Assembly (NCBI GenBank): GCA_016748015.1
Contig: JAAOMT010000612.1
Coordinates: forward strand, 1-37,386
Source of the DNA: Geosiphon pyriformis uo1
Lineage: Eukaryota > Fungi > Glomeromycota
Length of the DNA stretch: 37,386 bases
Direction of reading: 5' to 3'
A program made the translations under genes and the position numbers. Of the stretch, positions 2,362 through 36,073 are shown one piece after another (the stretch's first letter is position 1; the number at the start of each line of letters is the position of its first letter). The notes beneath the pieces are model-generated. The model did not search any database and had not been told where the DNA came from. It was given only the letters and a program-made list of their open reading frames with translations.

Positions 2362-2599
2362 AGCTAGCTACCAAAAGGATATCGACAAGCAGTCATCACC
2401 GGGCGACAAGCAGTTTCCCAGCTAGATATCGGTTTCTTCAGTCACTATTAGTGGCTGTTTTGAAGAAAATTGGCAGCGACAAGCAGTCATCACCAGGCAA
2501 CAAGCAGTTTCCCAGCTAGCTACCAAAAGGATATCGACAAGCAGTCATCACCGGGCGACAAGCAGTTTCCCAGCTAGATATCGGTTTCTTCAGTCACTA

Positions 2600-6043: not shown

Positions 6044-6045
6044 TT

Positions 6046-6061
6046 TAGTGCTCTCTGTGAG
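6046..6061 (+). promoter_or_regulatory. E1 primer binding site (TaGTGCTCTCTGTGAG)
   Basis: Lies 2 nt after the LTR and matches the E3 PBS TGGTaCTCTCTGTGAA. The consensus TGGTGCTCTCTGTGA is complementary to a tRNA CCA end; the tRNA is not identified. Confidence 0.8.
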
Positions 6062-6105
6062 ATATAATTCTACAGAGAACCAGTATCAACAGCAATTATC
6101 TAAAA

Positions 6106-9100: not shown

Positions 9101-12100
9101 AGAAGAAGGAAGAAGAACCAACACCTAACAGTACCACTACTTATAATTTCTACACTACACCCCAACAATCCACTTATTGCTGCCCAAAACTGGTATGCAT
9201 TGATTGTGACAAGAAATTGTCGTCAATGGGCACTTGTTGTAATGATGATAAGGAGTACACTTCAGCAACCAAATTCTACTGCTGTTCATGTGTTATTAAA
9301 TACTTCAGAAGACCAAAACAAGTTGAGAAATGGGACAATAAACTATGCTTGGCTTGTAGAAAAACTCTTTCAGATGAAGGAATGTGGAACAACATTCCTA
9401 GATGAGGAAGAACATACAATGAAATATGCCAGTATACAATTCTAATCAATGACTGGGTATGCAAGAACACATTAATCGATGACACTTAGAAACAAGCATT
9501 GTGACAATTGAAAGAATATCCCCATGACAAACATGAACTTTGGAGAATAGCATATGTGAAAACAGAAAGTGCAACAACTAGCAAACTCCTAGAAATCAAA
9601 AACAACCTTCTGTTTCTTTCTGAACCCGAATATGTCCAAACCTTCAACATCTTTGGCAACATTGAAGATGACCCAGAAGAATTCCATGAACATTACCAGC
9701 ATTTAGCACCCACTAGGGAAGAACAGAAGCAGCAGTTAGAACAATTGAATACTCAATTATGTCAACATTGCTTAATCCCATGTGACTTTCAATATTGTAA
9801 TAAGTGTGACTTCATTTACAATCCACCAACATGCATGATCTACATGATCCCAGAAGAAAACAAACCAATCAGCAACTGGGTATTGGAATCAGAATCAATT
9901 TTCAATCCTGATTCAAACTCCAACAACAATGACGATGACAAAAATAATGGTTCTAGCTCTGTGCAAAATGGCAACAATTTTAACTCAGATTCAAACTCCA
10001 ATTCAAAACCCAAACAATATATTGCACTTCCTAACTTTACCAAGGAACAAAAAACTTAAATGGTTTAGCGATAATAGTGAGGGTATCATACCAGAACATG
10101 CACATGATACTGATGTAGAGTTTGATCTAAGATATCCAGGAAAAGATGTCATAAAATTGGAACTCTATTTGTGCACCTGTATTAATCTCAAAATAGCATT
10201 AAAAATTCTAGTGACAACAATGGTTCAGTTAGCATTTAAGAGTAGCTTAGCAAAAAAGAGAATCAACATTAAAGGAGAAATAATTGATATAGGATACATA
10301 GGAAATATTATTGCTATGCTACAAAATGACTCAGAAAAAGCATATACTATAGATTCAAATGAAAAAATAGCATAGGCAATATTTTTATCTTTGGTAAAAA
10401 TAGCTCAGTTAGTGTCAATAGAAAACAGGGAAGAATTAGGAATTACTGTTAGAGGGATACAGGGATTCAGATCAATGGATAGAATAGATGTATCAGTTAA
10501 TATAACAGAAAAAGAGGTTATTGACAAAGAAGAAATTATCTCAATCTGTTAATCAATTTCTATTCCATCATATGACCAGTATATGTTAACCATAAAAAAA
10601 AAAGTAAAGAATCAAGCTCAGTTGTTTAAAGCAGAAGCCACTCTTTGTGAATCAGGAAAAATTGGACTCACTAATCTTTACATATCAGCCAAAAGCCCCA
10701 AAAACATCAAAATTCTTATCTACAACACAACAGGAAGTGTTATTGAAATACAAAAGGAAACCATTATTGGATATTTAACCACCAAAGTTGAGGATCAACT
10801 ACCAAACCACATTCCAGATTTTTCACAGCTTTGCAGATATGTGGACATTACATCACAAACTATCTATAAACAAAGTAAATATTATCTGCTCTAACCAGAA
10901 CAATTGAAACAAATAAACATGGGAAATCTAGACCCACTCCAACAGGTGCCAACTCAAGATATTACTTAACAATTTAAATAATATCTTTGCCAGTAAAAAT
11001 GAACTTGGCAGAACTAATATAATTCAGCACCAGATTAAGACTGGAGATACAATGCCAATAAAACAAAGAGCATATAGAGTACCACTAGCTAGTCATAAGA
11101 TTATTCATCAAGAAATCAATCAGATGCTTGACAACAGGCTAATTCAGTTATCAATGAGTCTATGGTCATTACCAGTGGTACTAGTCTGGAAAAAAAATAG
11201 AAAGATCCATTTCTGTGTGGATTATTGAAAACTAATGAAATAACCAAAGATGATAGCTATCCAACTCCAAAAATCCAAGAACTATTTAATGCTTTTAGAG
11301 GAAATAAATGGTTCTCAATACTGGATTTAGATAGTAATTATTGGCAAGTAACCATGGATCTAGCTGACAAAAAAAAACAGCATTTATTACAAGAGAAGAA
11401 AATTTCGAATTTGAAGTCATGTCATTTGGATTAATGAATACACCAGCCACATTCTAACAGCTAATAGAAATTGTGTACACTAGACTACTATGGAAGTCAG
11501 TAATCATATACTTGAATGACACCAATGTGTTCTCAAGAACATTCAATAATCATTTTCACCATCTACAACAAGTATTTGAAAGACTCAGACAAGCAAGACT
11601 GAAACTAAATGCCAATAAATGCTTCTTTGGAAAAACAGAACTAAAGTTCTTGGGACATGTTGTGAGCAAAGACAACATCAAAACAGATTCAGACAAGATT
11701 GAAGTTGTTAAGAACTTTCCAGTACCAAACAATCTTACTGAACTAAGAACATTCTTGGAATTTGCAAGGTATTATTGCTGTTTTATCAAAGACTTTTCTA
11801 AACTGGCTCAGCCATTTTATCATTTACAAACTAAAAATGTAAAGTATAAATAAACAGGAGTTCAACAAGAAGCATTTGACACACTGAGAAGAAAGCTTAT
11901 TTAAGCTCTAGTGTTGATGTATCCAGATCACAACAAACCATTTATTATCACTACTGATGCATCAGGCCAAGCATTGAGAGCAGTATTATCTTAGAAAAGA
12001 CCAAACAGACGAGAACATCTAGTAGTGTATGCCAGTAGAAGCTTAAGTCCAGCTGAAAAAAACTATGGAATACTAGCATTAGAACACTTAGCAATTTATT

Positions 12101-12312
12101 GAACAGTCATAAAATGGAAAAAATACCTGAATCAAAAATTTAAAATATATATGGATTACAAAAGATTGATTTTAATCCAGAAGCAAAAATTCGGAGATGA
12201 TTGCCATGCCAAATAGAAAATAGAACTTTCACTATTTAATTATATAGTACATTATAAAAAAGGAAAAAACAATGGAAATGCTGGCAGATTGTTGTGAATA
12301 AGACAAATCTAA
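6106..12312 (+). pseudogene. gag-pol: E1 ORF1 polyprotein (N-extension, Gag CA, CCHC, protease, Cys-rich domain, dUTPase, RT, RNase H), disrupted
   Basis: CA MAYISIAKLEKF at 7076; knuckle CHYCGKQGHLRIDY ~7814; LILDSG ~8512; dUTPase ~10060-10490; YLND (from YLDD) 11509-11520; RNase H TDAS ~11953. Many transition-derived stops and some frameshifts. Confidence 0.93.
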
Positions 12313-12342
12313 AAACATTTCAACCCAAAAATATAACAAAAG

Positions 12343-13568
12343 ATGAATATACAAAAATACCAACAACTCCAATATTATATAAATACCCAATTGTTCAAGG
12401 AAAAATTATCTCAAAAAGAACAAAACAACATAAAACAGCAATCAAACCATTTTATCAACTATCAAAATATACTTTATCAGAAGAACAAAAAAAATCCAGA
12501 CCAACCAACCAGAGAAAGAGACAATATTATTCAACATACACTTAGACTCAACAGCAGGACATTTTCATAAAGAAGCAATCATAGAAAAAACCAGAAAAAG
12601 ATACTATTGGCCATCAATATATCCAGACATCATCCAATATGTTCAAAGTTGTGATGCTTGTCAAAAAAGAGGTGGAACAAAACCCAGTAAACCATTGAGA
12701 CCAATCAAAGTGGGACAACTATTCAACTATATTAGAATTGACTTAGTCGGACTATTAACAATCACCAGCAGAGGCAACAGATATATTGCAATAGCCATGA
12801 ATTATCTTACAAAATAGCCAGAAGCAAAAACCATTCAAAGAGCAGATGCAGAATCCATTGCCAAATTCATCCATTAAGAGTTGATCTGTCGACATGGATG
12901 TCCAAAAGAACTACTATCAGATTAAGGAACCCACTTTGTGAACAGAACATTGACAGAATTGAGTCAAAGATTTGGAATTAAAAAACCATTGTCATTACCA
13001 TATTATCTACAAACCAATGGATTAGTAGAAAGATTCAATAGAATACTGTGTAAAGCAATTACCAGTTAAGATAAAAGTCATTATTTATCCAACAGAACCA
13101 ATAACTGAAGACAATTTTCAGGAAACATTGCTAAAAAAAACATATGACTTAATGAAAACACTAGAAAACAAATGGTGAAAAGCAGCTGATAACATCCAAA
13201 AGTCACAAGAAAAACAAAAAAAAAGACATGATAATCAACTATTAGACAAACCAGTTGAATTCAAGATTGAAGATAAAGTACTTTTACATCATACCAAAGC
13301 AGAAAAACAATGGAGTGGAAAATTTAATCCCAAATGGGATGGACTATTTTATATAAAAAAAATTCTTGGAAATAGAGCTTATAAATTAAAATGGGACAAC
13401 AAAATCTTAACCAAAGCAGCACATGATGATCAACTAAAACTATATCACCATATAATATCACTATCTACCAGTAATATTCCACAATTAGAAGTATAGAGAA
13501 TACTAGTACAACCAGATAAGATTTCACAAGATCTGAAACCAATTATCATCATTAGACCAAACACGTAA
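12343..13568 (+). pseudogene. int: E1 integrase as a separate ORF (HHCC, DDE, GPY/F; no chromodomain), disrupted, with an internal deletion near 13060
   Basis: ATG at 12343 (MNIQKYQQL); GHFH..CDACQ; IDLVG; SD*GTHF; QTNGLVERFN; WDGLFY. Confidence 0.9.
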
Positions 13569-13598
13569 AATTGAACAATAAAAAGAGTATATAAAGAC

Positions 13599-14267
13599 AT
13601 GGTAAACATGACGGAAGACTTCAGAAAAATGAAAATTACCGACAACATTTACTTACTAGCACAACAACTCTTTCAATTGATTCAACAACAAGAAATGGAA
13701 ATCACAATCAATCAACAAACTATCAAATACACAAACACCAGAAAAAGACCCTGGGATAAAGTATGGAGGAAAACAGAAAACACTGTTAACAAAATAATGG
13801 CAAAAATGAAACTGGTAATAGAAACACAACCCAAAGTTATTCAATATCAAAAGTTGAATATAGAAACCTGGAATTGGTGAACACAACAATTTCCAAGAAA
13901 CTTTTGTTACTTTTACTTGAAACAATATGTAAATATTCAGAATCTATATACAGATAAAACAAAATAATTATTTAACACAACAATACTACAACAACTGGAA
14001 CAATTTGTGAAGAAAAACAATTTAATTACACAAGCAAGAGCTATTTATTGGCTATATACCAGATTTCAAGATCGGCCAGAAATCTTGCTTAACACTAAAA
14101 TGAATACTGTTACTGTCAACCAAATAGAAAAATTGACCAACACCCAATTTGAAGAATTACAAAACAAAATAACACAAATAATTTTCAGAAAAAAAGTTCA
14201 AGAACTATTTAAGAATGGAGAATTAGAGCTAGAAAATTTGAGAGATCTCAATGGAGCTCAATATTAA
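13599..14267 (+). pseudogene. E1 ORF3, ~220-aa accessory protein of unknown function
   Basis: Track ORFs 13599-13880 and 14007-14267 share one frame, split by two stops. Homologous to ORF3 of E3 and E2. Confidence 0.8.
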
Positions 14268-14278
14268 AAAAGAAGAAA
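14266..14278 (+). promoter_or_regulatory. E1 polypurine tract
   Basis: AAAAAAGAAGAAA ending 3 nt before the 3' LTR. Confidence 0.8.
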
Positions 14279-14281
14279 TAA

Positions 14282-15134
14282 TGTTACTCATAGAATATAA
14301 GAAAGATATTAGCATAAATTAGCCAATTAGAAGTAGGCACAATAAATGTAGAATTCCAGAATTCCTTTTAGAGAAATTGCAGAATTCCAAAAATTTCAGG
14401 ATTCTTATACATGAATTACAGGATTCCAGAATTCCAGAATTTTTCTCAAAAGAAATTGCAGGATTCCAGAAATTCCAAGATTTTTGGTGTGAAGAATTGA
14501 GGAATTGAGGAATCTCAATTATGTATATATAGTGGTAGTATTAAAAGTAGAAAAAACAGACCTTCCAGTTAGATTTTATCTAAGCAACCTTCCAATTCAC
14601 AAATATCAATAAATAATTATTTACTATCTCAATCCACTCTTCATTATTAACACTTTATGTTGATAGTAATTGATACTTAACCACACTGGAACAATAGCTC
14701 TTGATTATGACTATTGATGGGATATTAACTTGCAATTGCTTTTACTTATTTCTTTATTTTCTTTTATTTTTTTGTATTTTTTTTGTTATTTTTTTGGTTT
14801 TACTAAATTGATTAAGGATTAAGCACTAAGATACAAACATCATAGGGACTGGTAAAAGACCTGTAAAACAAAGGTAGAACACTCATAGATTTGAGAATAG
14901 CTTACCAGAAGGATTACCAGTTACCATGCTGAGAAAAAAATTTGACGAAACTGTGGTTTCAGGAAGCTACAGATAAAATCATCAATTAAAATCTCTGTCT
15001 ATTATACAAAGAACTCTGCAACAAAACCTTCAGATAAATCACACCTGCAGATATTATCAATGTCAACAAATCAATTAAGCACCAAGTTACGGGTTTGTTA
15101 TTTGCTTTGAAACCTCAAATAATCACCTGTAATA
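14282..15134 (+). repeat. E1 3' LTR
   Basis: 853-bp copy of 5191-6043, differing almost only by transitions. Confidence 0.97.
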
Positions 15135-16392: not shown

Positions 16393-17359
16393 TGTTACCA
16401 GTAGAATTTTAGCTATTAATTAACATGAAATTACCCTTATAATTCCTATAATTAATCAGTATATTAATCATTTCAAATTATTATTTATTATTTAATTAAT
16501 TATTACATATCACGATTCAATTAAAATAATCTAATTAGTATAACAGAAAGTAGGATGATTAAATTACACAATACTCTGAACTTTGTAACATTCTAAAAAT
16601 TCGCCAAAATTTACAGAAATTCGCCGAAATTATAAATAGTTCACCCAAATTAATCAATAGTTTAGCAAAATAACTTGTAGTTCATCAAAATGTATCTTTA
16701 ATTCACCGAAAATTGAGCAAAAAGAAAAAGTGCAAGTTCATAGACTAGTACTACAACAAATTGTATAAAAGAAGAGCTTTTTTCTTCAAGAAAATATATC
16801 TTACTTTAGATTTTATCACTAGAACCATTCCTATACACACAAAAAGAAATAAATATCAAATAATTCGAAAAACCAAATTCTTTAATTATTACATTTGAAA
16901 AATTCCCAAAACCCAATTAACATTTCGAAATTGATTAGCTAGCAATTTCAGTAAACTGTTAGTGACTCCAGGCCTGGATAGAAAACGTTTCCCTTGACAG
17001 AATTCTATTTCTTTTACATTTCTTTTATTTTCTAGTATTTTTTTATTACAATCATTAGAGTAGCCTACAGACAAAATTCCTGTAGAAGAGTTGACTTTCA
17101 CAGCAAAGTAACTACACATTTTTAGTGAGCTTCCAGATGAGCAATTCCTGAGAAAGAGTTGACATTTACTACAATGTAACTACATAAAGTAACTGGCAAG
17201 AAATTGGTCATTCCACTTATAAGCCCAGCAGTTCAAATTATAAAAGATAATTTGAAGATAAATTCAGTTATTGGGTTCAACTACTTTTAGAAAACGTGAA
17301 TTTGCAACCAACAGACAGTTACAATATTCAAGAAAAGAGACCAAAAACCTCTGGTAACA
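16393..17359 (+). repeat. E2 5' LTR
   Basis: 9-bp terminal inverted repeat. TATAAAA at 16764-16770, AATAAA at 16848-16853. Confidence 0.98.
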
Positions 17360-17361
17360 TT

Positions 17362-17372
17362 TGGTGCTATCT
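17362..17372 (+). promoter_or_regulatory. E2 primer binding site (TGGTGCTATCT)
   Basis: TGG lies 2 nt after the LTR. One transition from TGGTGCCATCT, which as I recall complements the yeast tRNA-His 3' end; assignment tentative. Confidence 0.75.
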
Positions 17373-17404
17373 TACAAAAATAACACAGCAACAACAAATT
17401 CAAA

Positions 17405-20400
17405 GTGGTGACCACACCAGATGCAACAACTCTAGAGTATTACCAGTCAATTTACACCCACTGCAAGCAAAGATTCAACATCCCAGACGGAATTGAAGTC
17501 ATCAAGAAATCAGTATACCAATATATTAAAAATCGCATCAACAATTATCTCTTTGGAAATTACAACATCTCAGAAGTTAGAGGCAACTTTTACAATAATT
17601 TAATGCACTATTTACAGTTGAGAACTGAAGACCTTAACAATGAAACACTTGTCACTTACTTTCAAAAACTTAATTTTAACATTATCAAGTACTGTGAAGA
17701 AACATATCCAGTACAATCTCAATATTTTATTGATTTTGAATCAGAAACACAAACAAACAACAAAGACAAACAGAAATTGAAGCAATACTCAAGAACCACC
17801 CCAAATACTCCAATACTACCAAAAACAACTGCCAAACACTTGCAAACACCTAAACAAAAAACCAGTGTTAAATTACCACTTTTTATTACACCAATTCTAA
17901 TTTCACTTGTTCAACCACAAATACCAAGTTCACCACTTAAATGTTTCTCCAGACCAGAAGATTATCAGTCACCTAGAAATCCTACTCAACAGCAGGAACC
18001 AATATCAACAAGTGCCAATATTATTGATTACTTACAAGAAAACGAAAGTAATTATTCAGAAAGTCCAGAAAGTGAAGAAACTGAATCAGAACAAGAAGAA
18101 ACTACAGAAAACGAAAAAGTAATGGCAACTGCTTATATTGCAAAAATTCCAGAATTTACTGGTGAAGATAATGATACCAGTCCTCAAGAATGGCTTGACA
18201 AAGTTCAAAAAGCAGGAGATGCAAATAGTTGGATTGCAACAAAAATGCTCAAAGCAATCTCATATTTTCTCCAAGGAACTGTAGGAGAATAGTTTGAAAA
18301 CTTAGAAGAACCATTTGAAAACTGGCAAGCATTTAAAGATGCTTTTCTACAACAATTCACCAACAACAACACTTCTATCACTCTTAGAAACCGCTTTCGC
18401 AATATCAAGCAAGAAACATCTGAAACTGTTATGACCTATCTTGGAAGATTCAACAAACTTCTCAGACGAATTCAACAATTGGAAACCAATGACTACTATT
18501 CCAATGCTCAAATTCTGGATCAGTTTATAGCAGGGTTAAAAGACAAACTGATTAAAAAAGTCTGTCCACATGCTCTAGCAGACTTAGCAACTGCTATTAA
18601 ACATGCAAAGAATTATGAAATAGCTATGGAAGAAGCAAACCACACCAAACTTGTTAACTTAGCTATTGAAGAAACCAGCTCAGCAGCTGAAAAAAAGATA
18701 GACCAACTCACAAAAAAGGTTGAAAGCTATTTTACAAACCAGCAACAACAGCAACAACAACCACAAAAATATCAATCACCACAGCGATACAACCAAAACA
18801 ACTTTGGACCACCATCCAACCACCAACCTCAAAATTGTCACTATTGTGGAATTCCAGAACACTGGAAACGAGATTGTAGGAAACTACAAAGAGACCAACA
18901 AAACAGGAGTAATCAACGTCACTCTTCATCACAACAATTTTATTACCAATCCCTACCACCAACTTATTATTCACCAAGACCACAAATTCAAAACAGCTAT
19001 TATCAACCAGTTCCACAACCAATTCAACAACAATATCAGCAACTTTTACCAATTCAGCAATATCAGACACCATCCACTCAACAATATCAAGTACCAGCAA
19101 AAAGATTGGTTCACCATAACCAATTCACACCTCAAAATCAATTTCAGAATAACAACAACAGAATTAATCCAAATAACCAGTTGGTTTCCCAAAATTCTGG
19201 TCAGCAAAGACCCAATCACTATCACACTTAACCCAGTTATCTTACAATGCTGGAAGATTCAGATTTTCAACAAACTGCACTTTTTTTTTTTTTTTTTTCA
19301 ACACCAAGATCAAACCCTTTCAATCACACCATTCCACCAGCTCAAATTGCCCAAAATGCCAATCTGTCAGATATATTTCCATTTGAATTTAAGGCAAATG
19401 AATCACCATTCTTGCTTAGTAACACAGCAGTCAATGAACAAAAAGCAATCACTGCTATGTACATAGAAGCTACAGTAGAAGGAAAATCTATTTACTTAAT
19501 CCTAGATAGTGGATTTGCTGGAAGCATTATCACTTACCAGTTGATACAACAACTTAAACGAAATGTAGACAGACCAGCTCAAACAGTTATTGTCACCGCT
19601 AATGATATAAAAAAGACTCCAGTAGAAGAAATTAATGATTTCCTCTTTACAATTGATGGAATTACCATTCCAGTTAAAGTTTTTGTCATGGATGCACCCC
19701 AATACTAAGCCCTAGTTGGAAATGATTGGCTTCTCAAGGCCAATGCAAACCTGAACTGGATAACTCAAGAACTTAAAATCTCATACCAAAGACAATATAA
19801 CATAGTACTTGCAATCTGTGGTACCTTTAATAAATGATCAGAAAAAGCTCCAGTATTTAAATTTGAAGAAGGAAAGGAAATGCCACTTACTGAAACCTAC
19901 ATAGCTCTTGGATCACCATCTAATTGGGCTGAGGAAACAGAACAAGAGATTTTTGAAGAATCAAGAGAATGAAAGAAAGTTAGATATTCCACACCAGAAC
20001 CACGAAAAAAACCACCATACATTCCACTAAAATACAAAGATTGCAAAAAGAAGCTTTCATCTATGGGAGCTTGTATTTCTCCAGAAGAGGAATACGAAAC
20101 TCGCACTTGCTACTTCTACAAGGCATGCCATAGAGAACGATTTGGATCCCCAAAGAGAAGTGAAAAATGGGACAACACACTTTGTTTTACATGTGGAGAT
20201 ATGTTACCAGAAGAATGCAACTGGATTGATGTTGCAATGAGAGGAAGAGTATGTGATTAAACTTGTCAATATGCTCTATTAATTTCGGAAAAAGTGAGAA
20301 GAGGAACACCATTTGATGCAGCATACAACAGTGCTCTCAACAAACTATACCATTACTCACATGATGCTGAAATGATTTTTAACTTAGCAATGGCTTTAAT

Positions 20401-23046
20401 TAATGGAGCCACCCAGGAAGATGTCCACTAAATGAAGATGTCCACCAAATGAAAGAAGCTGAATATATTGAGTATACCATGGAACTAGCCAGATTTGATT
20501 ATGAAGATGAAGTAGAAACCTATTACCAAATTGCAAGCCACACATATCTGACCAAAGAAGCTCAAATTCAACGATTAGAGCAAATGAACATTCAATTGTG
20601 TAAAGAATGTGTTATGCCTTGTGATGACCAATGGTGTTTAGAATATTATGCTCTTAACATTCTTTTGCCAGATGAAAATGATGAAAATAAAATCGAATTT
20701 GGAGTATCTGAATTAGCAGAAGAACTACCAACCACTTCCATCTATCTTCTTGAAAAGCAACCACTTCTACAACTTAAATATTTTGACAACCATGGCCAAG
20801 GAATCAGACCAGAAAAAGCACACGAAATTGATGCCGGATATGACCTAAAATATCCAGGAAAAAATACTTTGGTTTTCCAACCAAAGTCCTTGACAAAAAT
20901 CAATCTCAAAATTGCTCTTGAAATACCACCAGGAGCAATGGTTCAAATTGCCTCCAGATCATCATTGGCAAGTAAAAAAATTAATATTAAAGGAGGAGTT
21001 ATAGATACAAGATACACTAGAGACATTATCATTATGTTACAAAATAAGACAGACAAATCATTTAAAATTGAACATGCTGAAAAAATTGCTCAAGCAATTT
21101 ACTTACCTTTAATCAACATTTCGGGTTTACAATCAGTAAACAACAGAGAACAATTGGGAAAAAGTAAAAGAGGAACTCAAGGTTTTGGTTCAACTGGACA
21201 ATTTACAGTTCCAGTAAATATAGCTCTTAATACACAAAATAAATCTCACCAGATTCTTCAACTTCTCCAGCCAATCACCATTTCACCTTTTGGAAAACAT
21301 TACGAAATTTACACTTGCTCAAAACCCACCACTACACAACAAATCTTTGAATTCAACGAACAAATCTGTTTGAAGCATGAAATCTCAATTCCAAACATTT
21401 ATATTCCCAAAGGAATAAAAAAATTTCGAGTTATATTTTACAACCCTAATAATTACCCTATTGTCTTATTAAACAAATTAGAAATTGGAATCATACACAG
21501 CAATATTTTTCAAGATAAAAACCCTCAAATTGTTTCTAATTTCATCGAAATTGTAAAGCACACTTTACTCCCAAATCCAAATATTATTCCCACTACTGAA
21601 AACTACCACTTTCTGGAAGAAAAACTCTCTCGAATTAACATGGTCCCTTAGAACCTCAACAACAAAGACAATTAAAACAATTAATAGCTGAATTTGCAGA
21701 TATATTTGCAAAAGACAACAATGACCTGGGAAAAACGGATATTGTTCAACATCAGATCCATACAGGAGATGCTCCTCCAAAATGTTAGCAAGCTTACAGA
21801 GTGCCACCAGCCAGCCACCAATTCATCAGAGAAGAAGTCCAGAGAATGCTTAATAATGGATTAATTCAACCATCAAGAAGTCTTTGGGCCTCACCAGTAG
21901 TCCTTATCAAAAAAAAAAAATAGAAAAATCAGATTTTGTGTTGACTATTGCCAACTGAACAGTATAACAATTGGAGATGCCTACCCTCTTCCAAGAATTG
22001 ATGACATGTTAGATGCTTTAGGAAAAGCCAAGTTTTTCTCAACTTTGGACTTAGAAAGTGGATACTGACAAGTCGAAATGGACCCAAAAGACCGACCCAA
22101 AACAGCATTTATTACCCAGGAAGAAAACTATGAGTTCAATGTTATGCCTTTTGGACTCTGCAATGCACCAGCAACATTCCAGCGACTCATGAATGTTGTA
22201 TATGAAGGACTCTTGTAGCAATCAGTAGTTGTCTATCTTGATGACACCAATATATACTCACTAAACTTTGAGACTCATCTTATTTACCTGTGAGAAGTTT
22301 TTCAATGATTATGGAAAGCAGGATTGAAGTTAAACATTGAAAAATGTTACTTTGGAAAAACAAGCTTAATCTTCTTCGGACACATTGTTAGCAAAAATAG
22401 AGTCAAACCAAATTCTGGAACAATCAGTGCTATCAAAAACTTTTAAACTTTCAGAAATACCACAGAACTACGAAGATTTGTAGGATTAGCCTCTTATTAT
22501 CGAAAATTTATAAAAGAATTCTCAAAAATTGCCAAACCATTCAATTATCTTACCAATAAAAACGTGCCATACAAATGGACTGAAGAACAACAAAAAGCTT
22601 TTGAAACTCTCAAAACAAAATTGACAACAGCCCCAGTTCTTGCTTACCCAGACTTCAACAAACAGTTTCAATTAGCCACTAATGCTTCACACATAGCATT
22701 TGGTGCTATCTTATCACAATTGAATGAAAATGGCCAGGAACGAGTTATTGTCTATGCCAGCAGAACACTTAAACCAACAGAACTCAAATATGGCTCAATT
22801 GAATTGGAAGCCACTGCAGTTATCTGGGCTCTTAAACATTTTCAACAATATCTGAAGAATAGAAAAGAATTTGACATAATAACAGACAACATTGGTCTCA
22901 AATGGCTCAATAAAAAGAAAACTGAACAAAGCGCCAAACAGTCTTGATGGAATGACTTCCTAGCAGACTACAGATACATTGTACACTACAAACCAGAAAA
23001 ACTACATACCAATGTTGATAGCCTCTCAAGAATGAGACAATATTAA
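17405..23046 (+). pseudogene. gag-pol: E2 ORF1 polyprotein (N-extension, Gag CA, CCHC, protease, Cys-rich domain, dUTPase, RT, RNase H), disrupted
   Basis: CA MATAYIAKIPEF at 18122; CHYCGIPEHWKRDC 18836-18877; LILDSG ~19496; YLDD 22234-22245; RNase H ends ...DSLSRMRQY*. Gag through dUTPase is one frame once the 17-bp duplication at 20417-20450 is removed. Confidence 0.95.
20770..21198 (+). CDS. dut: dUTPase domain within E2 ORF1 (homotrimeric type)
   Basis: All five motifs in order: DAGYDL, ASRSSLA, GGVIDTRYT, IAQAI, RGTQGFGSTG. Confidence 0.93.
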
Positions 23047-23113
23047 TACCAACATCAACACCAATAAAACACCAACAAACTTAATAGCAGAACAAACAAC
23101 AAAACTAACAACA

Positions 23114-24499
23114 ATAGATTCAAAAAACTACAACAACATCAAAAACTATTTGGAGACCCTCACCATGCCAGAAAATTGGTCTCCAAGTGAAAAACATCGA
23201 TTACAATACCAATCCAAACAATATTTTATACACCACAACAAAATCTATTACAAAAATTGTAAAAATCCAAACCAATTATTCAGATTAGTACAGCAAAATG
23301 AAAAAAAAACAATTTTATATAACATGCACACAGATCTGTCTTCAGCACACTTGAGAAGAGATGGAACAATTTAAAGAACTCTTGAACATTATTTTTGGCC
23401 TCACATGCAAAAAGACATTCGACAATATATAGAATCTTATAATAGTTGTTAAAAAAGAGAAGGAATTCGCCTCACAGAACCATTAAATTCAATCAAAGTT
23501 GGACAACCTTTTGACAGAGTTGGAATTGATTTGGTCGGACCATTATCTATCACAACCCAAAGAAATTGCTATATTGCAGTAGCAGTAGATTATCTTACCA
23601 AATGACCTGAAGCTAGAGCCATCCCAAGAGCGGATGCAAAATCAGTAGCAAATTTCATTTATGAAGACATTATTTGTAGACATGGATGCCCAATTGAACT
23701 TTTATCTGATCAAGAAACACATTTTGTGAACAACTTGATACAAGAAATTTGTAAACAATTCAATGTCAAAAGACCTCTATCATCATCTTATCACCCTCAA
23801 ACAAATGGACTTATAGAACATTTCAATAGAACATTGTGTAAATTTCTAGCCAAAGTTTCAACAGACTTTGAGCAGGAATGGGATATCTTTATTCCATTAG
23901 TGTTACTAGCATACAGAACACTAAAACAAGATACTACAAAACACACACCATTTGATCTTACTTATGGAAGGACAGCAATATTATCAATTAATTTCACAGT
24001 GGAAACATACCCAGTACAACCAATCAATGAAGAAAACTTTCAAGAAACACTCCAAAGAAGAGTCTACACTCTTCTCAGTACACTAGAAGAAAAAAGAAGA
24101 ATAGCAGTGACTCACATTGAACATTCTCAAGCTCAACAAAAAGAAAGACATGACAACAAATTACCACTCATTATAAACGAATTTAAAGTTGGAAATAAAG
24201 TTCTCTTACACAGAACTAAGGCTGAAAAACAATGAAGTGGGAAATTTGAAAACAAATGGGATGGACCATTTTATATTCACGAAATTCTAGACAATGGATC
24301 ATACAAGTTAAAACTTGATGACAAAATACTAGCAAAAGTTGCACATGGGGACAGATTGAAACACTATCATTCCAGAAACAATCTTGAACCATTAATTCCA
24401 CAAATTGGTACATATTTCCCTTTAATTAATCCTGAAGACATTCCCTGAAATTTAGAACTAATAATTATAATAGAACAACAACCAAACTTGAACACTTAA
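23114..24499 (+). pseudogene. int: E2 integrase as a separate ORF (HHCC, DDE, GPY/F; no chromodomain)
   Basis: (M)DSKNYNNIKNYLET, with ATA at the position of the E1 ATG; GIDLVG; SDQETHF; HPQTNGLIE; WDGPFYI. Single frame to TAA at 24497. Confidence 0.92.
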
Positions 24500-24642
24500 A
24501 TTTTACAATAATTCTCTAATAAAAACACAAAAACAAAAATAGTAAATAATTACAGAAACACCCAAACCCAAAAACAAATAAAAACCCCATATCCAAAAAT
24601 AATTTTCTTTATTTTCTCTTTTCATAATTAGTCAATTTTATC

Positions 24643-25318
24643 ATGGTTATTTCCCGAAATATTCAACAAATATCCCAAAAGTTAATGTTAGCCTTGAAAA
24701 CACTTCCTGACTTATTCATAATGATTAATGGAAGTCAAATTAATTACATTCAGAAAGAAACCACAGCTCCAGTAGCAAATCATTCACAGAACTATCACCC
24801 CTATAAAAGAAAAACAAGAAGCCACTCTGAAAATAGGTTACCAAGACTTTTGAAACAAGCACTAGAAAAAAATCTTTTAATTGCCCCTATGGACATTCAC
24901 CAAATGCTACAATGCAACAAAAACTTCTACTACTTCTTAACAAACAAAACAATGAATACACCCCTATCTATAAATATTTTCACATTGAAAAGACACTTTA
25001 TGAACGAAAACTGGAACTTGAAACAACAAATATCACTCCTGAAGCTATACAAAAACAAATTCATAATAAATTCAAAACAGCAGCTGGACTAATGAACACT
25101 CACTACAAACTTAGAGCAGCTTTTAGACTCTATGATTTGTTTAATACTTGTGAAAATGTTTTACAGAATCCAATACTGTATCCAATGAAAGTTTAATACA
25201 TTGGCAAACTCACAGAACTGAAATTTTAACAATTCTCAGACCAGATTACGTCAATTATTTTGGATCACTATCTTAATATTACAGATAGTGCTTGGACTTT
25301 GATGGAGCTCAGTCTTGA
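24643..25318 (+). pseudogene. E2 ORF3, accessory protein of unknown function (frameshifted)
   Basis: Track ORFs 24643-25092 and 24912-25196. RAAFRLYDLF...IGKLTELKF aligns with E1 RAIYWLYTRF...IEKLTNTQF. Ends DFDGAQS*. Confidence 0.75.
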
Positions 25319-25326
25319 GAAGAAGA
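25317..25326 (+). promoter_or_regulatory. E2 polypurine tract
   Basis: GAGAAGAAGA ending 3 nt before the 3' LTR. Confidence 0.75.
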
Positions 25327-25329
25327 TTA

Positions 25330-26319
25330 TGTTACCAGTAGAATTTTAGCTATTAATTAACATGAAATTACCTTTATAATTCCTATAATTAATCAGTATA
25401 TTAATCATTTCAAATTATCATTTATTATTTAATCAATTATTACATATCACGATTCAATTAAAATAATCTAATTAGTATAACAGAAAGTAGGATGATCAAA
25501 TTACACAATACTCTGAACTTTGTAACATTCTAAAAATTCGCCGAAATTTACAGAAATTCGCCGAAATTTATAAGAAATTCGCCGAAATTATGAATAGTTC
25601 ACCCAAATTAATCAATAGTTTAGCAAAATAACTTGTAGTTCATCAAAATGTATCTTTAGTTCACCGAAAATTGAGCAAAAAGAAAAAGTGCAAGTTCATA
25701 AACTAGTACTACAACAAGTTATATAAAAGAAGAGCTTTTTTCTTCAAGAAAATATATCTTACTTTAGATTTTATCACTAGAACCATTCCTACATACACAA
25801 AAAGAAATAAATATCAAATAATTCGAAAAACCAAATTTTTTAATTATTACATTTGAAAAATTCCCAAAACCCAACTAACATTTCGAAATTGATTAGCTAC
25901 CAATTTCAGTAAACTGTTAGTGACTCCAGGTCTGGATAGAAAACGTTTCCCTTGACAGAATTCTATTTCTTTTACATTTTTTTTATTTTCTGGTATTTTT
26001 TTATTACAATCATTAGGGTAGCCTACAGACAAAATTCCTGTAGAAGAGTTGACTTTTACAGCAAAGTAACTACACATTTTTAGTGAGTTTCTAGATGAGC
26101 AATTTCTGAGAAAAAGTTGACATTTACTACAACATAACTACATAAAGTAACTGGCAAGGAATTGGCCATTCCACTTATAAACCCAGCAGTTCAAATTATA
26201 GGAGATAATTTGAAGATAAATTCAGTTATTAGAGGTTCAACTACTTCTAGAAAACATGAATTTGCAACCAACAGACAGTTACAATATTCAAGAAAAGAGA
26301 CCAAAAACCTCCAATAACA
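25330..26319 (+). repeat. E2 3' LTR
   Basis: Copy of 16393-17359 with one extra ~21-bp tandem unit and a 2-bp indel. Confidence 0.98.
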
Positions 26320-26667: not shown

Positions 26668-27593
26668 TGTTACAGGTGATTCTTTGGGTATTGAGTGAAT
26701 AACAAACCCATAACTTGGTGCTTAAAGCAATGGGTGATGATGATAATCTGAAGGTATTTTATCTGAAGGTTTTCCAATTGAGTTTTTTGTATAATATACA
26801 GAGATTCAATGATAACAGTTTATCAGTAGTTTCTTGAAACTATAGTTTTGTCAATTGTTTGCTCAGCTTAATGGTTGATGATTCTTCTGATATGATATCT
26901 TTTGTAAGTGTATACCAGTACTGTTTCCTAATGTTAGTTCCTCTGTAAGTTCTCCAAGAGTAAATATTGTTTAAGCAAGTTTATTCCTCTGTAAGTTCTC
27001 CAAGAATAAGTATTGTTTAAGTAAGTTTTATTCCTCTGTAAGTCCTCCAAGAGTAAATCCTTTAATCAAGTTAGTAGACAACAAAGAAAATAAAGAAAAG
27101 ATAAAAGAGAAAATAAGAAATAAGCCAAGGCAATTTGCAAGTTAGTATCCTGTCAATAGTCATGATCAAGAGCTATTGTTCCAGTATAGTTAAGTATTAG
27201 TTACTATCAACATGAAGTGTTAATAGTGAAGAATAAATTTGATATAATGAATAATTATTTATTTGAGGATTGTGGTAACTAAGCTAAAAATTCTTGGTGT
27301 CTTTTTTTTTTTTCTGCTTTTAACACTACTGCTATATATACATATTTGAGATTCCTTAATTTTTCAATTCTTTGTGATAGGAATTCTGGAATTCTTGGAA
27401 TTCTGCAATTCCTGATGAGAAAAATCCTGGAATTCTGGAATCTTGCGATTCTTTGTTAGAAAATTCTGAAATTCCTGGAATCCTGCAATTCTTCTGAGAA
27501 GAATTCTGAAATTTTACATTTACTACGTCTATTTCTGATTGGCTAATATCTACTTGCTAATAATAATATACTTCCTATATTCTATGAGTAACA
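26668..27593 (-). repeat. E3 3' LTR
   Basis: TGTTAC...GTAACA ends; copy of 36074-36999. Confidence 0.97.
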
Positions 27594-27596
27594 TTA

Positions 27597-27608
27597 TTCC
27601 CTCTTTTT
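27597..27608 (-). promoter_or_regulatory. E3 polypurine tract
   Basis: AAAAAGAGGGAA on the minus strand, ending 3 nt before the LTR. Confidence 0.85.
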
Positions 27609-28266
27609 AATATTGAGCTCTATCGAAATCTAACTCTTTTAATTCCCTCTCTTGAATTATTTCTTGAACTTCTTTTTCGAGTATTACTTGTGTTATTTGA
27701 GTTTGTAGTTCTTCAAATTGGGCATTGGTCATTTTTCTTAATTGATTACTCGTAACTGTATCTATTGCTGTGTTAAGTAAGATTTCTGGTCAGTCTTAAA
27801 ATCCCATATATAGCCAGTAAATGGCTTAAGCTTGTGTGATCAGATTGTTCTTTCCCACAAATTGTTTCAATTGTCTTAGTATTGTTGTGTCAAATAACCA
27901 TTTTGTTTTGTTGGTGTACAAATTCTGGATATTTACATATTGTTCCAAGTAAAAATGACAATAGTTTTTCAGAAATTGTTGCATCCACCAAGTCCAAGTT
28001 TCTCCAATAAGTTCTTGGTGTAATTTGACTATTTGTTGTTCTTTCATGGCCAATTTTACCTTGGTCATGATTTTATTAACAACATTTTCAAGTTTTCTCT
28101 GTACTTTGTGTTGTGGTATTCTTGCAGTACTTTTGTATCGAATAGTTTGTTGATTGATTGTAATTTCTATCTTCTGGTGTTGGATTAATTGAAAGATTTG
28201 TTGTGCTAATAAATGGATGTTGTCGGTAATTTTTATTTTTCTGCGTTTTTCTATCATGTCAACTAT
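27607..28266 (-). pseudogene. E3 ORF3, accessory protein of unknown function
   Basis: Track ORF 27826-28257 continues in frame through stops to ...ELDFDRAQY*. Clearly homologous to E1 ORF3. Confidence 0.8.
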
Positions 28267-28290
28267 GTCTTTATATATTCTTTCTGTTGA

Positions 28291-29673
28291 TCAATTGGAT
28301 GTGTTGTTATTAATGATGATAATTGGTTCTAGATCTCATAGAATCTTATCTGGTTGGACTAGTATTCTCTGTACTCTCAGTTGTAAAATATTACTGGTAG
28401 ATGATGATACTATATGGTGGTATGATTTCAGTCGATCTCCATGTGCTTCTTTGGTCAAGATTTTGTTATTTAATCTTAATTTGTAAGCTTCATTTCCTAG
28501 AATTTCTTCTATGTGAAATGGTCCATCCTATTTGGGGTCAAATTTTCCACTCCATTGTTTTTCTGCTTTGGTACAATGTAATAGTACTTTGTCTCCAATC
28601 TTGAGTTCAACTGGTTTATTTGGTAGTTGGTTATCATGTCTTTCTTTTTGTTTTCCTTGTGACTTTTGTATGTTATTAGCTGCTCTCTGTTATTTGTTTT
28701 TTAATGTTTCTATTAAGTCATATGTTCTTTTCAACAATGTGTTTTTGAAATTCTCTTCTGTTATTGGTTTGGTTGGGTATTTGCTGACTTTTATTTTCAC
28801 TGGTAATGTTGCTGTTCTACCATATACTAATTCAAATGATGTTGCTTGTATAGTATCTTGCTTCATTGTTCGATAAGCAAATAGTACTAATAATATCAAC
28901 AAATCCCAATCGTTTTGGTTTTCTTGGCTGAGCTTAGCTATTGCTTTACACAATGTTTTGTTGAATCTTTCGACTAATCTATTGGTTTGTGAATGGTATG
29001 GTAATGATAATGGTCTCTTAATTTCGAATCTTTGGCTCAATTCTGTTAATGTTCTGTTCACAAAATGTGTTCCTTGGTCTGATAATAATTCTTTTGGACA
29101 TCCATGTTGACAAATCGAATTCTGATGAATAAATTTGGCAATGGATTCTGCATCCACTCTTTGAATTGCTTTCACCTCTGGCCATTTAGTGAGATAGTTT
29201 ATGGCTATTGCTATGTATCTGTTTCCTCTGCTGGTGATTGTTAATGGTCTGACTAAATCAATTCCAATACAGTCGAATAATTGTCCTAATTTGATTGGTC
29301 CTAATGATTCACTGGGTTTTGTATCTCCTCTTCACTAACAAGCATCACAATTTTGAACATATTGGATAATGTTTGAATACATTGATGGCCAATAGTATCT
29401 TTTTCTGGTTCTTTTCATGGTTGCTTCTTTGTAAAAGTGTCTTGCTGTTAGATTTGAGTGCATGTTGAATAATATTGTCTTTTTTTCTGGCTCTGTAATT
29501 ACTCTGGTTGGTTGCTTTAGATCTCTTCTATTTTTCTGATAAAGTATATTTTGGTAAGTTATAAAATATTTTGATTGTTGTTTGATACTCTTTCGTTCCA
29601 TTTGAGATAAATTCTTCTTGAACTGTTAAGTGTTTATATAATGTTAAAGTTGTTGATATTTTTGTATGTTTAT
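28291..29673 (-). pseudogene. int: E3 integrase as a separate ORF
   Basis: (M)NIQKYQQL, with ATA at 29673; H..H..CDAC; SDQGTHF; ERFNKTL; *DGPFHI. Confidence 0.92.
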
Positions 29674-29735
29674 CTTTTGTTATATTTTTCATTGGTATTG
29701 TTCTGGTTTTGTTATATTTTTGGGTTGAAATGTTC

Positions 29736-32700
29736 TTAGATTTGTCTTATTCGTAACAAACTGTCAGCATTTCCATTGTTTTTTCCTTTCTTATAGTGTA
29801 TAGTATATAGTGTAAGTATATTGTGAGAGTGCCATTTTCCATCTGGATTGGCAACTGTCATCAAATTCTTGCTTTTGAAGTAATATTAACCCTTTATGAT
29901 CCGTGTATATATCAAACTTTTGGCTCAAGTATTTGTTCCACTTCATGACTGCCCAATAGATTGCTAAATGTTCTAGTTCTGGTGTTCCATAGTTCTTTTC
30001 AGCTGGTGTTAGACCTCAGCTGACATATGCTACTGGATGTTCTCTGCCATCTGGTCCCTTCTGAGATAGTACTGCTCCCAATGCTTGGCTTAATGCATTG
30101 GTGGTAATAATGAATGGTTTGTTGTGATCTGGGTAGATCAGTATTGGAGCTTGAATGAGCTTTTTTCAGAATATCAAAAGCTTTTTGTTGACTTTCTGTT
30201 CATTCATATTTTGTATTCTTGGTTTGCAGATTATTGAGTGGTTGAGCTATCTTTGAAAAGTTCTTTATAAAGCATCAATAATAGCTTGCAAATCCCAAGA
30301 ATGATTTCAATTCAGTCACATTGGTTGGTACTGGAAAGTTCTTTACTATCTCTATTTTTTCTGAATCTATTTTGATGCTGTCTTTGCTGACTATATATTC
30401 CAAGAATTTTAGTTCTGTCTTGCCAAAGAAGCACTTTGTTGTATTTAACTTTAGTTCTGCTCTTCTTAGTCTTTTGAACACTTGTTGAAGATGATAAAGA
30501 TGATCATCAAATGTTTTTAAGAATACATTGGTGTCATCCAAGTATACAACTACTGATTTCCACAATAAGCCAGTATAAACAATTTCCATTAGTCATTAGA
30601 AAATGGCTGGGGCATTGGTTAAGCTGAAGGGCATTACTTCAAATTCAAAATTCCCTTTTCTAGTGGTGAATGCCGTCTTCTCCTTGTTGGCTGGATCCAT
30701 GGCTACTTGCCAGTAACCACTGTTTAAGTCTAATGTTGAAAACCATTTGTTTCCACTGAAAGCGTCGAACAATTCTTGTATTCTTGGGGTTAGATAGCTG
30801 TCTCCACGAGTTACACTATTGAGTTTCTTATAGTCCACACAAAATTGGATTTTTCTATTCTTCTTCCGGATGAGTACCACTAGTGATGATCATGGGCTCA
30901 TTGATGATTGAATTAGCCCATTGTTAAGCATTCGGTTTATCTCTTGACAAATGATCTCATGGCTAGCTAGTAGTACTCTGTATGCTCTTTGTTTAATTGG
31001 CATTGCATCTCCAGTCTTGATTTGATGCTGGATGATGTCAGTTCGGCCAAATTCATTTTCATTGACAAAAATGTCATTGAAATTGTTGAGCAACATATTG
31101 AGCTGCATACATTGGAGTGGGTCTAAATTTCCCATGTTCATTTGTTCTAATTGCTCTGGTTGGAGCAAATAACATTTGCTTTGTCCATATATTGTTTGTG
31201 ATGTGATATTAACATATTCACAAAGCTGTAGAAAGTCCAGAATGGTGCTTGGTGATTGATCCTCTATTTCAGTGCTTAAGTATCCAATGGTGGTTCCGGC
31301 TGGTATTACTATGACATTTCCTGTGTTATTATAGATGGGAATTTTGATGTGGCTGTAATTTTTGGCTGGTATATGGAGATTGATGAGTCTAATCTTTTCT
31401 GATTCACAAAAGGTTGGTTTTGCTTCAAAAATCTGATTCTGTTCTTTTACTTCCCACTTTATCCCTACTATGTACTGGCCATATGATGGAATGGAAATTG
31501 TTTGACCTGTTGAGATAATTTTTTCTTGGTCAACTATTTCTTCTTCTGCCATATTTATTAATACATCTATTCTACCTGTTGATCCAAATCTCTGTATTTC
31601 TTTTGCTGTTATTCCTAATTCCTCCTTATTTCCCACTGATATTAACTGCACTATTTTCTCCAGAGACAAAAATATTGCCTGTGCTATCTTTTTGTTTGGC
31701 TCTATGATATAAGTCTTTTCAGAGTAGTTTTGTAGCATAGCAATGATATTTTCTACATATCCTGTGTCAATTATTCCTCCTCTTATATTAATCCCTCTTT
31801 TCGCTAAACTACTCTTAAATGCTAGTTGAACCATTGTTGTTGCTGAGATTTCTAATGCTACTTTCAGATTAATACAAGTGTGTGAATGTGGTTCCAATTT
31901 AATGGCATCTTTTCCTGGATACCTTAGATCAAACCCAGCATCAGTATTATGTGTATGTTCTGACATAATATTTTCATTATTGTCACTATACTATTTTAAC
32001 TCCTGTTCTTTGAAAAGATCTGACAGTGCAATGTATTGTTCATATTTTGGGTCGAAGTTTGAATCTGAGTTGGAATTATTGTCATTATTATCACTAATTT
32101 GAATGAAACTAGAACTAGTGTTTTTGTCATCATCATTGTCGGAGTTTGAATTGGGATTGAATGGTGATTTCAATTCAGATGTGCAGCTGCTGATTGGTTT
32201 GATTTCCTCTGGGATTGTATAGATCATGTATGATAGTGGATCATAAATGAGGTCACACTTATTACAATATTGGAAGTCATAGAGAATCAAACAGTGGTCA
32301 CATAATTGGGTGTTTAGTTGTTCTAAATGCTGCTCCTACTCTTCTCTTGTAAGTGCCAAATTTTGGTAGTATTTGTGAAAATCTTCTGGACCTGTTTTTT
32401 TATCCATGAAAGCATCTGAGTTAGGAATATGAATGATATCGACCAGTTCTGGGGGATTGTTCTTAATTTCCAGTATTTCACTGGGTGTAGCACCTTCTAC
32501 TTTGGCATTGGCCATTTGCTAAATCTTCTCTTCATTGTGGGGGTAACCATCTAAATGATTGAGTGTTCAGTGCTATGCTGCTGTAATCGGGGTACTATGA
32601 CTCATCCAGTTATTAATAAAAATCATGTATTGGCATAAAGTGTTACATATTCCTCCTTGACCAGGAATGTCATTTCACATTCCTTTGTTGAGCAGTTGTT

Positions 32701-36012: not shown

Positions 36013-36055
36013 GTTTGAATAATGTTGTTGGTGCTGGTTCTCTGTAAAATTATAC

Positions 36056-36071
36056 TTCACAGAGAGTACCA
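36056..36071 (-). promoter_or_regulatory. E3 primer binding site
   Basis: TGGTACTCTCTGTGAA lying 2 nt inside the 5' LTR. Confidence 0.85.
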
Positions 36072-36073
36072 AA

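Follow-up and report, generated by a model that had tools for sequence, protein, structure and literature searches.

Zinc modules recur beside retroelement dUTPases, as in the betaretroviral NC-dUTPase (PMC4531489) and rotifer Juno (PMC5408684). In M-PMV and MMTV, a basic, Gag-derived CCHC nucleocapsid (NC) of ~90 aa lies directly N-terminal to a trimeric dUTPase (PMC4531489, PMC1802613), the reported pI of NC-dUTPase being 8.2-9.0 (PMC1802613), while Juno LTR elements of bdelloid rotifers carry a single Zn knuckle after a dUTPase placed between protease (PR) and reverse transcriptase (RT) (PMC5408684). Fungal Gypsy Pol, too, has been reported with a dUTPase in this place, in PosPlaTy3-5 of Postia placenta and in Phanerochaete and Tuber elements (PMC2864245); the available portion of that source discusses them among chromodomain-bearing elements and mentions no multi-finger domain before the dUTPase. 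Extra conserved domains in Ty3/Gypsy Pol are considered rare (PMC9289625). Here we describe domain X, a Cys-rich stretch of ~215 aa flanked by protease and dUTPase, which we conclude to be a real, apparently undescribed, lineage-restricted accessory domain of Ty3/Gypsy Pol. Elements of this type carrying a dUTPase were already known, and the multi-finger domain is the apparently new part.

The window, that is, the whole analysed stretch of 37,386 nt of contig JAAOMT010000612.1 from Geosiphon pyriformis uo1 (GCA_016748015.1), holds three LTR elements (E1, E2 and E3), all with domain X (Table 1). Their LTR pairs are 88-94% identical and each is flanked by a 4-bp duplication, imperfect in E1. The domain order, Retrotrans_gag/Ty3_capsid followed by PR, RVT_1, rve and SH3_Tf2-1, with RNase H recognized by eye alone, is that of Ty3/Gypsy. 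Differences within the LTR pairs are nearly all transitions (78/80, 36/37 and 107/111), and all three copies show hypermutation and a loss of CpG (o/e 0.09-0.26). The three X sequences are paralogues within one family and do not count as independent evidence on its origin.

Table 1. Features of the three LTR elements and of domain X in the window (nucleotide positions; finger and bundle assignments are predictions).
Feature	Position	Strand	Remarks
Element E1	LTRs about 5191-6044 and 14282-15134	+ (domain X strand)	duplication TTAT/TCAT
Domain X in E1	9184-9825	+	
Element E2, decayed Ty3/Gypsy LTR retrotransposon	16393-26319	+	LTRs 16393-17359 and 25330-26319; 4-bp target-site duplication GTGT
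E2 gag region	17384-19231	+	Retrotrans_gag, Ty3 capsid, one CCHC knuckle
E2 aspartyl protease (PR)	19448-19786	+	shares reading frame with first part of domain X
Domain X in E2 (~215 codons)	20027-20664	+	
Finger 1, CxxC-x24-CxxC	20033-20128	+	basic; predicted LIM-type treble clef; 2 Cys decayed to Tyr in E2
Finger 2, CxxC-x19-CxxxC	20183-20266	+	spacing of TRASH/FCS type; modelled with low confidence; stop codon at 20258
Predicted helical bundle, acidic	20267-20598	+	pLDDT 84-93 over model residues 81-140; 17-nt duplication inside in E2
Finger 3, CxxC-x8-CxxC	20599-20646	+	final Cys replaced by Tyr in E2 (decay)
E2 trimeric-type dUTPase	20773-21198	+	Pfam PF00692, E 3.7e-22
E2 reverse transcriptase (RT), decayed	21702-22404	+	
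E2 integrase core and SH3/GPY-F-like C-terminus	23606-24424	+	no chromodomain match
Element E3	LTRs about 36074-36999 and 26668-27593	- (domain X strand)	target-site duplication CCAT
Domain X in E3	32234-32872	-	

A sequence-only reading of the window had proposed a cysteine-rich motif between protease and dUTPase, and this was indeed found in E1, E2 and E3. Twelve core cysteines define it, of which E1 and E3 keep 11 each and E2 keeps 9, all five lost positions having changed from Cys to Tyr; the E2 copy is further disrupted by a stop codon at 20258 and by a 17-nt tandem duplication at 20417-20450, which shifts its reading frame. The Cys positions are conserved across copies, as that reading supposed: among 363 retrieved proteins, Cys makes up 84-99% of the confidently aligned residues at the 12 core positions, and counting Tyr as well brings this to 97-100%, nearly all losses being Cys-to-Tyr decay. 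An intact metagenomic Pol, P0318, encodes PR (residues 182-271), domain X (341-556), dUTPase (610-737) and RT (from 973) in a single ORF, and retains all 12 core Cys despite 33-50% identity of its domain X to the Geosiphon copies. Its 17 cysteines within the 216-aa domain, against 3 across the remaining 848 aa, indicate that this richness is not due to chance. Two further residues of the motif first proposed are not universal ligands, because the 'MGxC' cysteine is replaced by Trp in one subfamily and by a non-Cys residue in P0318, and the 'YPHD' histidine is missing from the latter. Several subfamilies present differing surfaces on the same Cys scaffold.

A profile search retrieved 446 proteins at E<=0.001; the named relatives among the best 150 of these 446 are all Geosiphon pyriformis gene models, and Ambispora or cellular relatives could sit among the weaker matches. 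Within a set of 359 retrieved proteins, PR lies upstream in 172 and dUTPase downstream in 141, and every one of the 12 others that have long flanks matches elements of the window across 75-100%. No occurrence of domain X outside these elements was seen among the retrieved homologues (best 150 of 446 in the profile listing), nor was there a cellular donor among them, which leaves the original notion of a captured module without support. Related loci were found neither in IMG/VR nor in JGI metagenomes, a search with the P0318 domain (52 candidates) returned P0318 alone, and no RNA run was listed as carrying domain X in the sequencing-run search.

Since neither Pfam nor the PDB provided a match, domain X is not a standard Ty3/Gypsy Pol domain, as first proposed. 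Pfam matched none of the window copies and gave only weak NMD3 matches in 4 of 32 aligned members (best E 0.0046); with single fingers the best E was 0.027, with no LIM, zf-FCS or TRASH match. Sequence searches of the PDB did not match the domain (one reached dUTPases only), PHROGs yielded only dUTPase/dCTP deaminase below E 0.05, and BFVD had no match to domain X. Foldseek comparison of two predicted models with the PDB, one of the checks suggested at the outset, likewise revealed no significant match to a described domain (nothing at E<=0.001, and no CDCA7 chain among the rows listed), and the best hit of a wide VIA search (Z 5.8) covered the helical part only and fell inside the chance range. 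With finger 2 poorly modelled, these negative fold comparisons carry limited weight against any one family, HMZF included. HD-domain proteins, present as weak Foldseek rows, were discarded at rmsd 11-14 Å; the 'HD' of YPHD is not retained in P0318. No description of domain X was found in the literature covered, which lay outside the G. pyriformis genome papers, Repbase and GyDB.

Modelling predicts that the 12 cysteines form three C4 zinc fingers around a helical bundle (mean pLDDT 70, pTM 0.44; finger 2 below 55), and the CxxC pairs and their conservation suggest that these residues bind zinc. Treble-clef-like fingers are a reasonable interpretation: finger 1 superposed on single LIM fingers with rmsd 1.8-2.4 Å over 35-38 residues (five rows, low Z of 2.2-2.8), and LIM chains accounted for 10 of the 45 Foldseek rows shown, at E>3 and none significant. 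In a LIM domain, a C2HC finger is followed in tandem, after two residues, by a C4 finger. In domain X, fingers 1 and 2 are separated by 18-20 residues, the paired architecture and the His-bearing first finger are absent, and Pfam detects no LIM; the nearest counterpart is the second finger of LIM, and the likeness is a weak superposition of finger 1 on single LIM fingers. The proposed TRASH/FCS resemblance survived in part: the spacing of finger 2, CX2C-X19-CX3C, fits the zf-FCS consensus CX2CX14-30..CX3C (PMC4047054), but the FCS signature is missing (T/V/M-C-D/N at the third Cys), as is any Pfam match.

We consider it very improbable that the N-terminal half of domain X is a captured, divergent zf-4CXXC_R1 finger (CDCA7/HMZF, PF10497) sensing methylated DNA. 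For one Geosiphon copy, the top three Atlas matches were PF10497 clusters (0.85-0.86; 160-167 of 256 features in common), both proteins have a Cys-rich region followed by helices, and the spacing from Cys pair 1 through YCxxC to the next CxxC, compared by eye, is near that of the published CDCA7 alignment. However, these scores lie below 0.9 and were not repeated by the domain of intact P0318, whose best score was 0.77 with no family, PF10497 matched none of the 32 aligned copies at a cut-off of E<=10, and the second Cys pair and CxCxxC triplet of CDCA7 are absent; against the 11 signature Cys of PF10497, the N-terminal half has, by eye, 8 invariant Cys in another arrangement. Moreover, the R274/Q275 pair directly after Cys 2 of the CDCA7 HMZF, which reads 5mC (PMC11343034), corresponds in domain X to H/G/N/K followed by K. 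The lead was rejected on the Pfam result, the low and unreproduced Atlas scores and the missing signature residues.

Domain X was kept by purifying selection. Its 0-fold/4-fold transversion ratio is 0.32-0.44, with p<=0.001 for each of the three pairs of window copies, compared with 0.05-0.16 for PR and 0.05-0.43 for dUTPase. It also diverged jointly with its neighbours, as its pairwise identity correlates with those of PR (Spearman 0.83, 56 proteins) and dUTPase (0.77, 43 proteins). A non-functional spacer or passenger insertion, to which the lower conservation of X relative to PR and RT could point, is therefore exceedingly improbable, being already largely refuted by this selection and by the conserved Cys, all 12 of which are present in P0318. 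Between E1 and E3, 0-fold transversions reached 0.119 in X but 0.015 in PR and 0.012 in dUTPase; change this much quicker is easier to reconcile with a host-facing role or with looser constraint than with an internal role that is fixed.

From its position, with PR-X-dUTPase-RT encoded in frame, and by analogy with betaretroviral NC-dUTPase, we tentatively favour domain X as a binding adaptor linked to the N-terminal side of the dUTPase, rather than an enzyme, although this reading falls short of being likely. After protease processing, X would stay on the trimeric dUTPase via a flexible acidic linker and would grip a particle partner, either RNA/cDNA by its basic finger 1 or Gag/RT by the acidic helical part and finger 3; dUTP removal would thereby be held where reverse transcription takes place, as proposed for betaretroviral NC-dUTPase. 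Common to both systems is a zinc-binding module, predicted in X, directly N-terminal to a trimeric dUTPase of basic pI (8.1 in intact P0318, near the betaretroviral values). In contrast to NC, X is ~215 aa long, C4-type, acidic and encoded downstream of PR, and no homology between them was found, which makes the comparison one of analogy only; it differs from Juno in having, ahead of the dUTPase, three predicted C4 fingers together with a helical bundle. Seven of the nine proteins measured have a linker of 42 to 84 aa between X and dUTPase; a protease site may lie within this variable segment, and cleavage there would release X.

Several observations sit uneasily with an adaptor: unlike NC, X as a whole is acidic, Gag has a CCHC knuckle of its own, X changes much faster than PR and dUTPase between E1 and E3, and no such domain is mentioned for the basidiomycete and rotifer elements whose dUTPase is likewise reported to sit between PR and RT.

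If cut free, X could instead serve counter-defence (anti-silencing), binding a silencing or chromatin protein of the host and shielding the element, a possibility we regard as unlikely. Its rapid amino-acid change relative to PR and dUTPase between E1 and E3, the subfamilies that vary in surface but keep the Cys scaffold and the LIM-like fingers, a protein-binding type, would suit such a role. The transition-biased LTR pairs indicate a host that mutates repeats heavily, and LTR elements make up 41.2% of the Geosiphon genome (PMC11952901). Pol products, however, are usually scarce and late, and any protection was incomplete, given the hypermutation and CpG depletion of the window copies.

Rather less probably, X acts as a free RNA-handling protein, be it another chaperone resembling nucleocapsid or a factor for export or packaging in the manner of Rev/CERV. 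It has three fingers, one of them basic, zf-FCS fingers can bind RNA (PMC4047054), and the Gypsy element Cer1 encodes CERV, whose Cys loop is required for genomic RNA export (PMC10309623); CERV, though, derives from the Gag end of Cer1 and has a different architecture. The intact domain in P0318 has a pI of 4.7 and a net charge of -13, finger 1 alone being basic (pI 8.7), which weakens both this role and the general nucleic-acid binding envisaged in the sequence-only reading. It is still less probable that X is a chromatin reader steering integration in place of the missing chromodomain. The integrase C-terminus yielded an SH3/GPY-F-like match only, an acidic surface could suit histone tails, and one Atlas search gave PHD, ADD and zf_VAL1 clusters at 0.76-0.78; yet such values are at chance level in the Atlas calibration and were not reproduced with the intact domain. 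In addition, X lies distant from integrase in the polyprotein, so that processing would part them, and its Cys order does not yield C4HC3, the cross-braced pattern. On the boldest reading, X is delivered from inside Pol, is structurally novel, with three treble-clef-type fingers on a helical bundle, and counters host defence or reads chromatin; it may then have enabled the family to spread through much of the Geosiphon genome in the face of heavy C-to-T attack on repeats, which we hold to be unlikely too.

Collectively, domain X is a well-supported, unnamed domain whose inferred function is unproven. The family has left hundreds of fragmentary gene models, LTR sequence accounts for 41% of the genome, and domain X explains many 'hypothetical proteins' of G. 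pyriformis as retrotransposon debris. As an intact natural copy, P0318 renders zinc content, structure, processing and partners of the domain testable. We know of no transposon anti-silencing protein in this fungal lineage; if X binds a host silencing factor, it would be one. If it rather tethers the dUTPase, it would represent a solution reached independently of betaretroviruses, which met the same problem with NC-dUTPase.

The window carries three LTR retrotransposons (E1, E2 and E3) of ~10 kb each, with 4-bp target-site duplications at their flanks, 88-94% identity within LTR pairs and decay in every one of them. As judged from sequence, the domain order of E2, namely gag (capsid, CCHC), protease (PR), the Cys-rich domain X, dUTPase, a ~160-aa stretch, reverse transcriptase (RT), RNase H (placed by eye) and integrase with an SH3/GPY-F-like end, is that of Ty3/Gypsy. 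The sequence-only reading had placed an unrecognised multi-zinc-finger domain in all three elements, and we confirmed its coordinates at each PR-dUTPase junction. In E2, X shares the reading frame of the protease and has been disrupted twice, once through a stop at 20258 and again through a tandem duplication of 17 nt (20417-20450).

Positions of the retrotransposons and of domain X in the window
Feature	Position	Strand	Detail
E1	about 5191-15134	+	LTR pair 5188-6044/14279-15135
E2	16393-26319	+	LTR pair 16393-17359/25330-26319
E3	about 26668-36999	-	LTR pair 26668-27593/36074-36999
X in E1	9184-9825	+	Cys-rich stretch
X in E2	20027-20664	+	Cys-rich stretch
X in E3	32872-32234	-	Cys-rich stretch

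Other features accompany this layout. A putative primer-binding sequence starting TGGTGCT, which presumably resembles the complement of the elongator tRNA-Met 3' end, abuts the 5' LTR (17360-17376, 6045-6062 and just inside that of E3). Gag has a ~300-aa N-terminal extension before the capsid domain (17384-18292, +), without a Pfam match. The ~160-aa segment between dUTPase and RT (21253-21648, +; residues 738-900 of the intact metagenomic Pol homologue P0318) is kept in E1, E2, E3 and P0318 at 25-32% identity, matches nothing in Pfam and is possibly, at a guess, a degenerate second dUTPase-like beta domain. Between integrase and 3' LTR, E2 holds a decayed frame of ~150-190 codons (24628-25196, +) and E3 an open frame at the equivalent position (27826-28290, -), a possible ORF3, again with no match in Pfam. 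Two assembly gaps (1547-2361 and 3537-4464; 1743 N) gave long ORF calls that are N-run artefacts, and the flanking region 1-3200 is near-identical repeated sequence.

Alignment of 363 proteins to the profile, all gathered by similarity to X, revealed 12 positions that are Cys in 84-99%, and Cys or Tyr in 97-100%, of confidently aligned residues, bearing out the cysteine conservation across copies; the Cys>Tyr replacements are G>A changes, as the decay observed within LTR pairs would predict. The pattern reads CxxC-x24-CxxC, CxxC-x19-CxxxC, ~105 residues and CxxC-x8-CxxC, with all twelve Cys at that exact spacing in 6 of 365 stored proteins. The MGxC cysteine and YPHD histidine, also singled out earlier, are common in Geosiphon but missing in the outgroup P0318. 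The linker from X to dUTPase is ~80 aa and Asn/Asp/Ser-rich in E1/E3-type copies (9890-9990, 32020-32130), and acidic and ~42-47 aa long in E2-type copies and P0318.

Two homologue searches yielded only G. pyriformis gene models among their best matches (120 of 135 and 120 of 168). A profile of X matched 446 of 1.84 billion representatives at E<=0.001, of which the best 150 were listed; 14 proteins were read at full length and 6 looked up, five being from Geosiphon and the sixth P0318 (ENA record, 19-kb contig). The latter is a single, undecayed-looking ORF (PR 182-271, X 341-556, dUTPase 610-737, RT from 973). Its identity to E2 is 62% (PR), 42% (X), 63% (dUTPase) and 65-71% (RT). Those of the other new matches that the comparison covered were 49-97% identical to Geosiphon models, and further members from outside Geosiphon may exist. 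Among 359 proteins, X has PR upstream and dUTPase downstream in 84, PR only in 88, dUTPase only in 57 and neither in 130. Flanks >150 aa occur in 12 of these 130, each of them a match to the elements in the window. PR lies only downstream of X in 8 proteins and dUTPase only upstream in 8, probably where gene models cover two elements. The proposal of a captured module found no backing, as no cellular donor was seen among the retrieved homologues (profile search: best 150 of 446 matches).

Because decay adds transitions, transversions were used for counting. Uncorrected for saturation, the 0-fold/4-fold transversion ratio of X was 0.32-0.44 (Fisher p from 1e-3 down to 1e-6), that of PR 0.05-0.16, that of dUTPase 0.05-0.43 and that of RT 0.22, a sequence pattern indicating that X was functional during diversification of the family. 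At 0-fold sites, change between E1 and E3 is ~8-10x faster in X than in PR or dUTPase. Pairwise identity in X follows that in PR (Spearman 0.83) and dUTPase (0.77), the pairs not being independent, and this co-divergence fits one old acquisition.

Three zinc fingers are predicted, with a helical bundle, also predicted, between fingers 2 and 3. The E1 copy (stops as X residues, 32 sequences) reached pLDDT 63, and the P0318 domain (76 sequences) pLDDT 70 and pTM 0.44, with 59-85 in finger 1 blocks, 43-53 in finger 2, 84-93 in the helical core and 54-73 in finger 3. Foldseek, the comparison proposed earlier, returned nothing significant for these models in PDB or BFVD; LIM chains made up 10 of 45 rows listed for the P0318 model, none significant. 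Upon VIA realignment of 153 Foldseek chains (best 50 listed), 8 of the 50 were LIM chains on residues 1-53, all at Z 2.2-2.9; five of them superposed with an rmsd of 1.8-2.4 A across 35-38 residues, the other three with 3.2-4.6 A. RING and Slp4 fingers scored similarly, which suggests a generic treble-clef finger rather than a LIM member. The helical bundle had no VIA match above chance (best Z 5.8). As for the presumed TRASH/FCS likeness, finger 2 matches the zf-FCS/TRASH spacing (consensus from an excerpt of PMC4047054), but the FCS residues are absent.

What X does we infer from this context. No conserved catalytic constellation was seen, so we take X for a binding module joined by flexible linkers. 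With dUTPase as its constant neighbour, X would serve as an adaptor retaining that enzyme inside the particle, a reading we favour tentatively, by analogy. It draws on the betaretroviral zinc-knuckle-dUTPase fusion, proposed to hold the enzyme where reverse transcription occurs, and on the basic pI of betaretroviral dUTPases (excerpts of PMC1802613 and PMC4531489), the intact P0318 dUTPase having pI 8.1 (decayed copies were left out, as G>A changes inflate values). Points against it are the acidic charge of X (finger 1 basic, remainder acidic, whole-domain pI 4.7), the variability of the linker and how quickly X evolves. The anti-silencing module suggested earlier is unlikely, a free RNA-handling protein resembling Cer1 CERV (PMC10309623, in excerpt) somewhat more so, and an integration-targeting reader more doubtful still.

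When a Geosiphon copy was submitted to a language-model search, clusters of zf-4CXXC_R1, a domain that reads hemimethylated CpG (excerpt of PMC11343034), came out on top (0.85-0.86). However, the intact P0318 domain scored <=0.77 with no family, PF10497 was matched by 0 of 32 copies, and the second Cys pair, CxCxxC triplet and Arg-Gln pair are all absent from X relative to the alignment excerpted from PMC10538959, rendering a CDCA7-like sensor very improbable. An inert spacer is hardly credible, and a minor share of the probability goes to none of these readings.

A dUTPase between PR and RT is known from basidiomycete Gypsy elements (PMC2864245, in part), and from rotifer elements, of which Juno adds a knuckle after dUTPase (PMC5408684, in part); extra domains in fungal LTR elements have been remarked on generally (PMC3248453, excerpt). 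The literature searched, with Geosiphon genome papers, Repbase and GyDB outside its scope, held no published account of X. X is a real, apparently undescribed and lineage-restricted accessory domain within a known element class; the sequence-only observation stands, its interpretation only in part.

LTR sequence makes up 41.2% of the G. pyriformis genome, with similar expansion in Ambisporaceae (excerpt of PMC11952901). Decayed copies of this family underlie hundreds of the G. pyriformis proteins annotated as "hypothetical", whose gene models look spliced. Differences within LTR pairs are nearly all transitions (78/80, 36/37 and 107/111), mostly in CA, CT and CC contexts taking C as ancestral, in LTRs already CpG-depleted (o/e 0.09-0.26). 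The picture resembles hypermutation of a context-free, RIP-like or methylation-driven kind; RIP signatures went undetected in Gigaspora margarita or Mucoromycotina (PMC8647823). Such hypermutation would make LTR-based ages too high.
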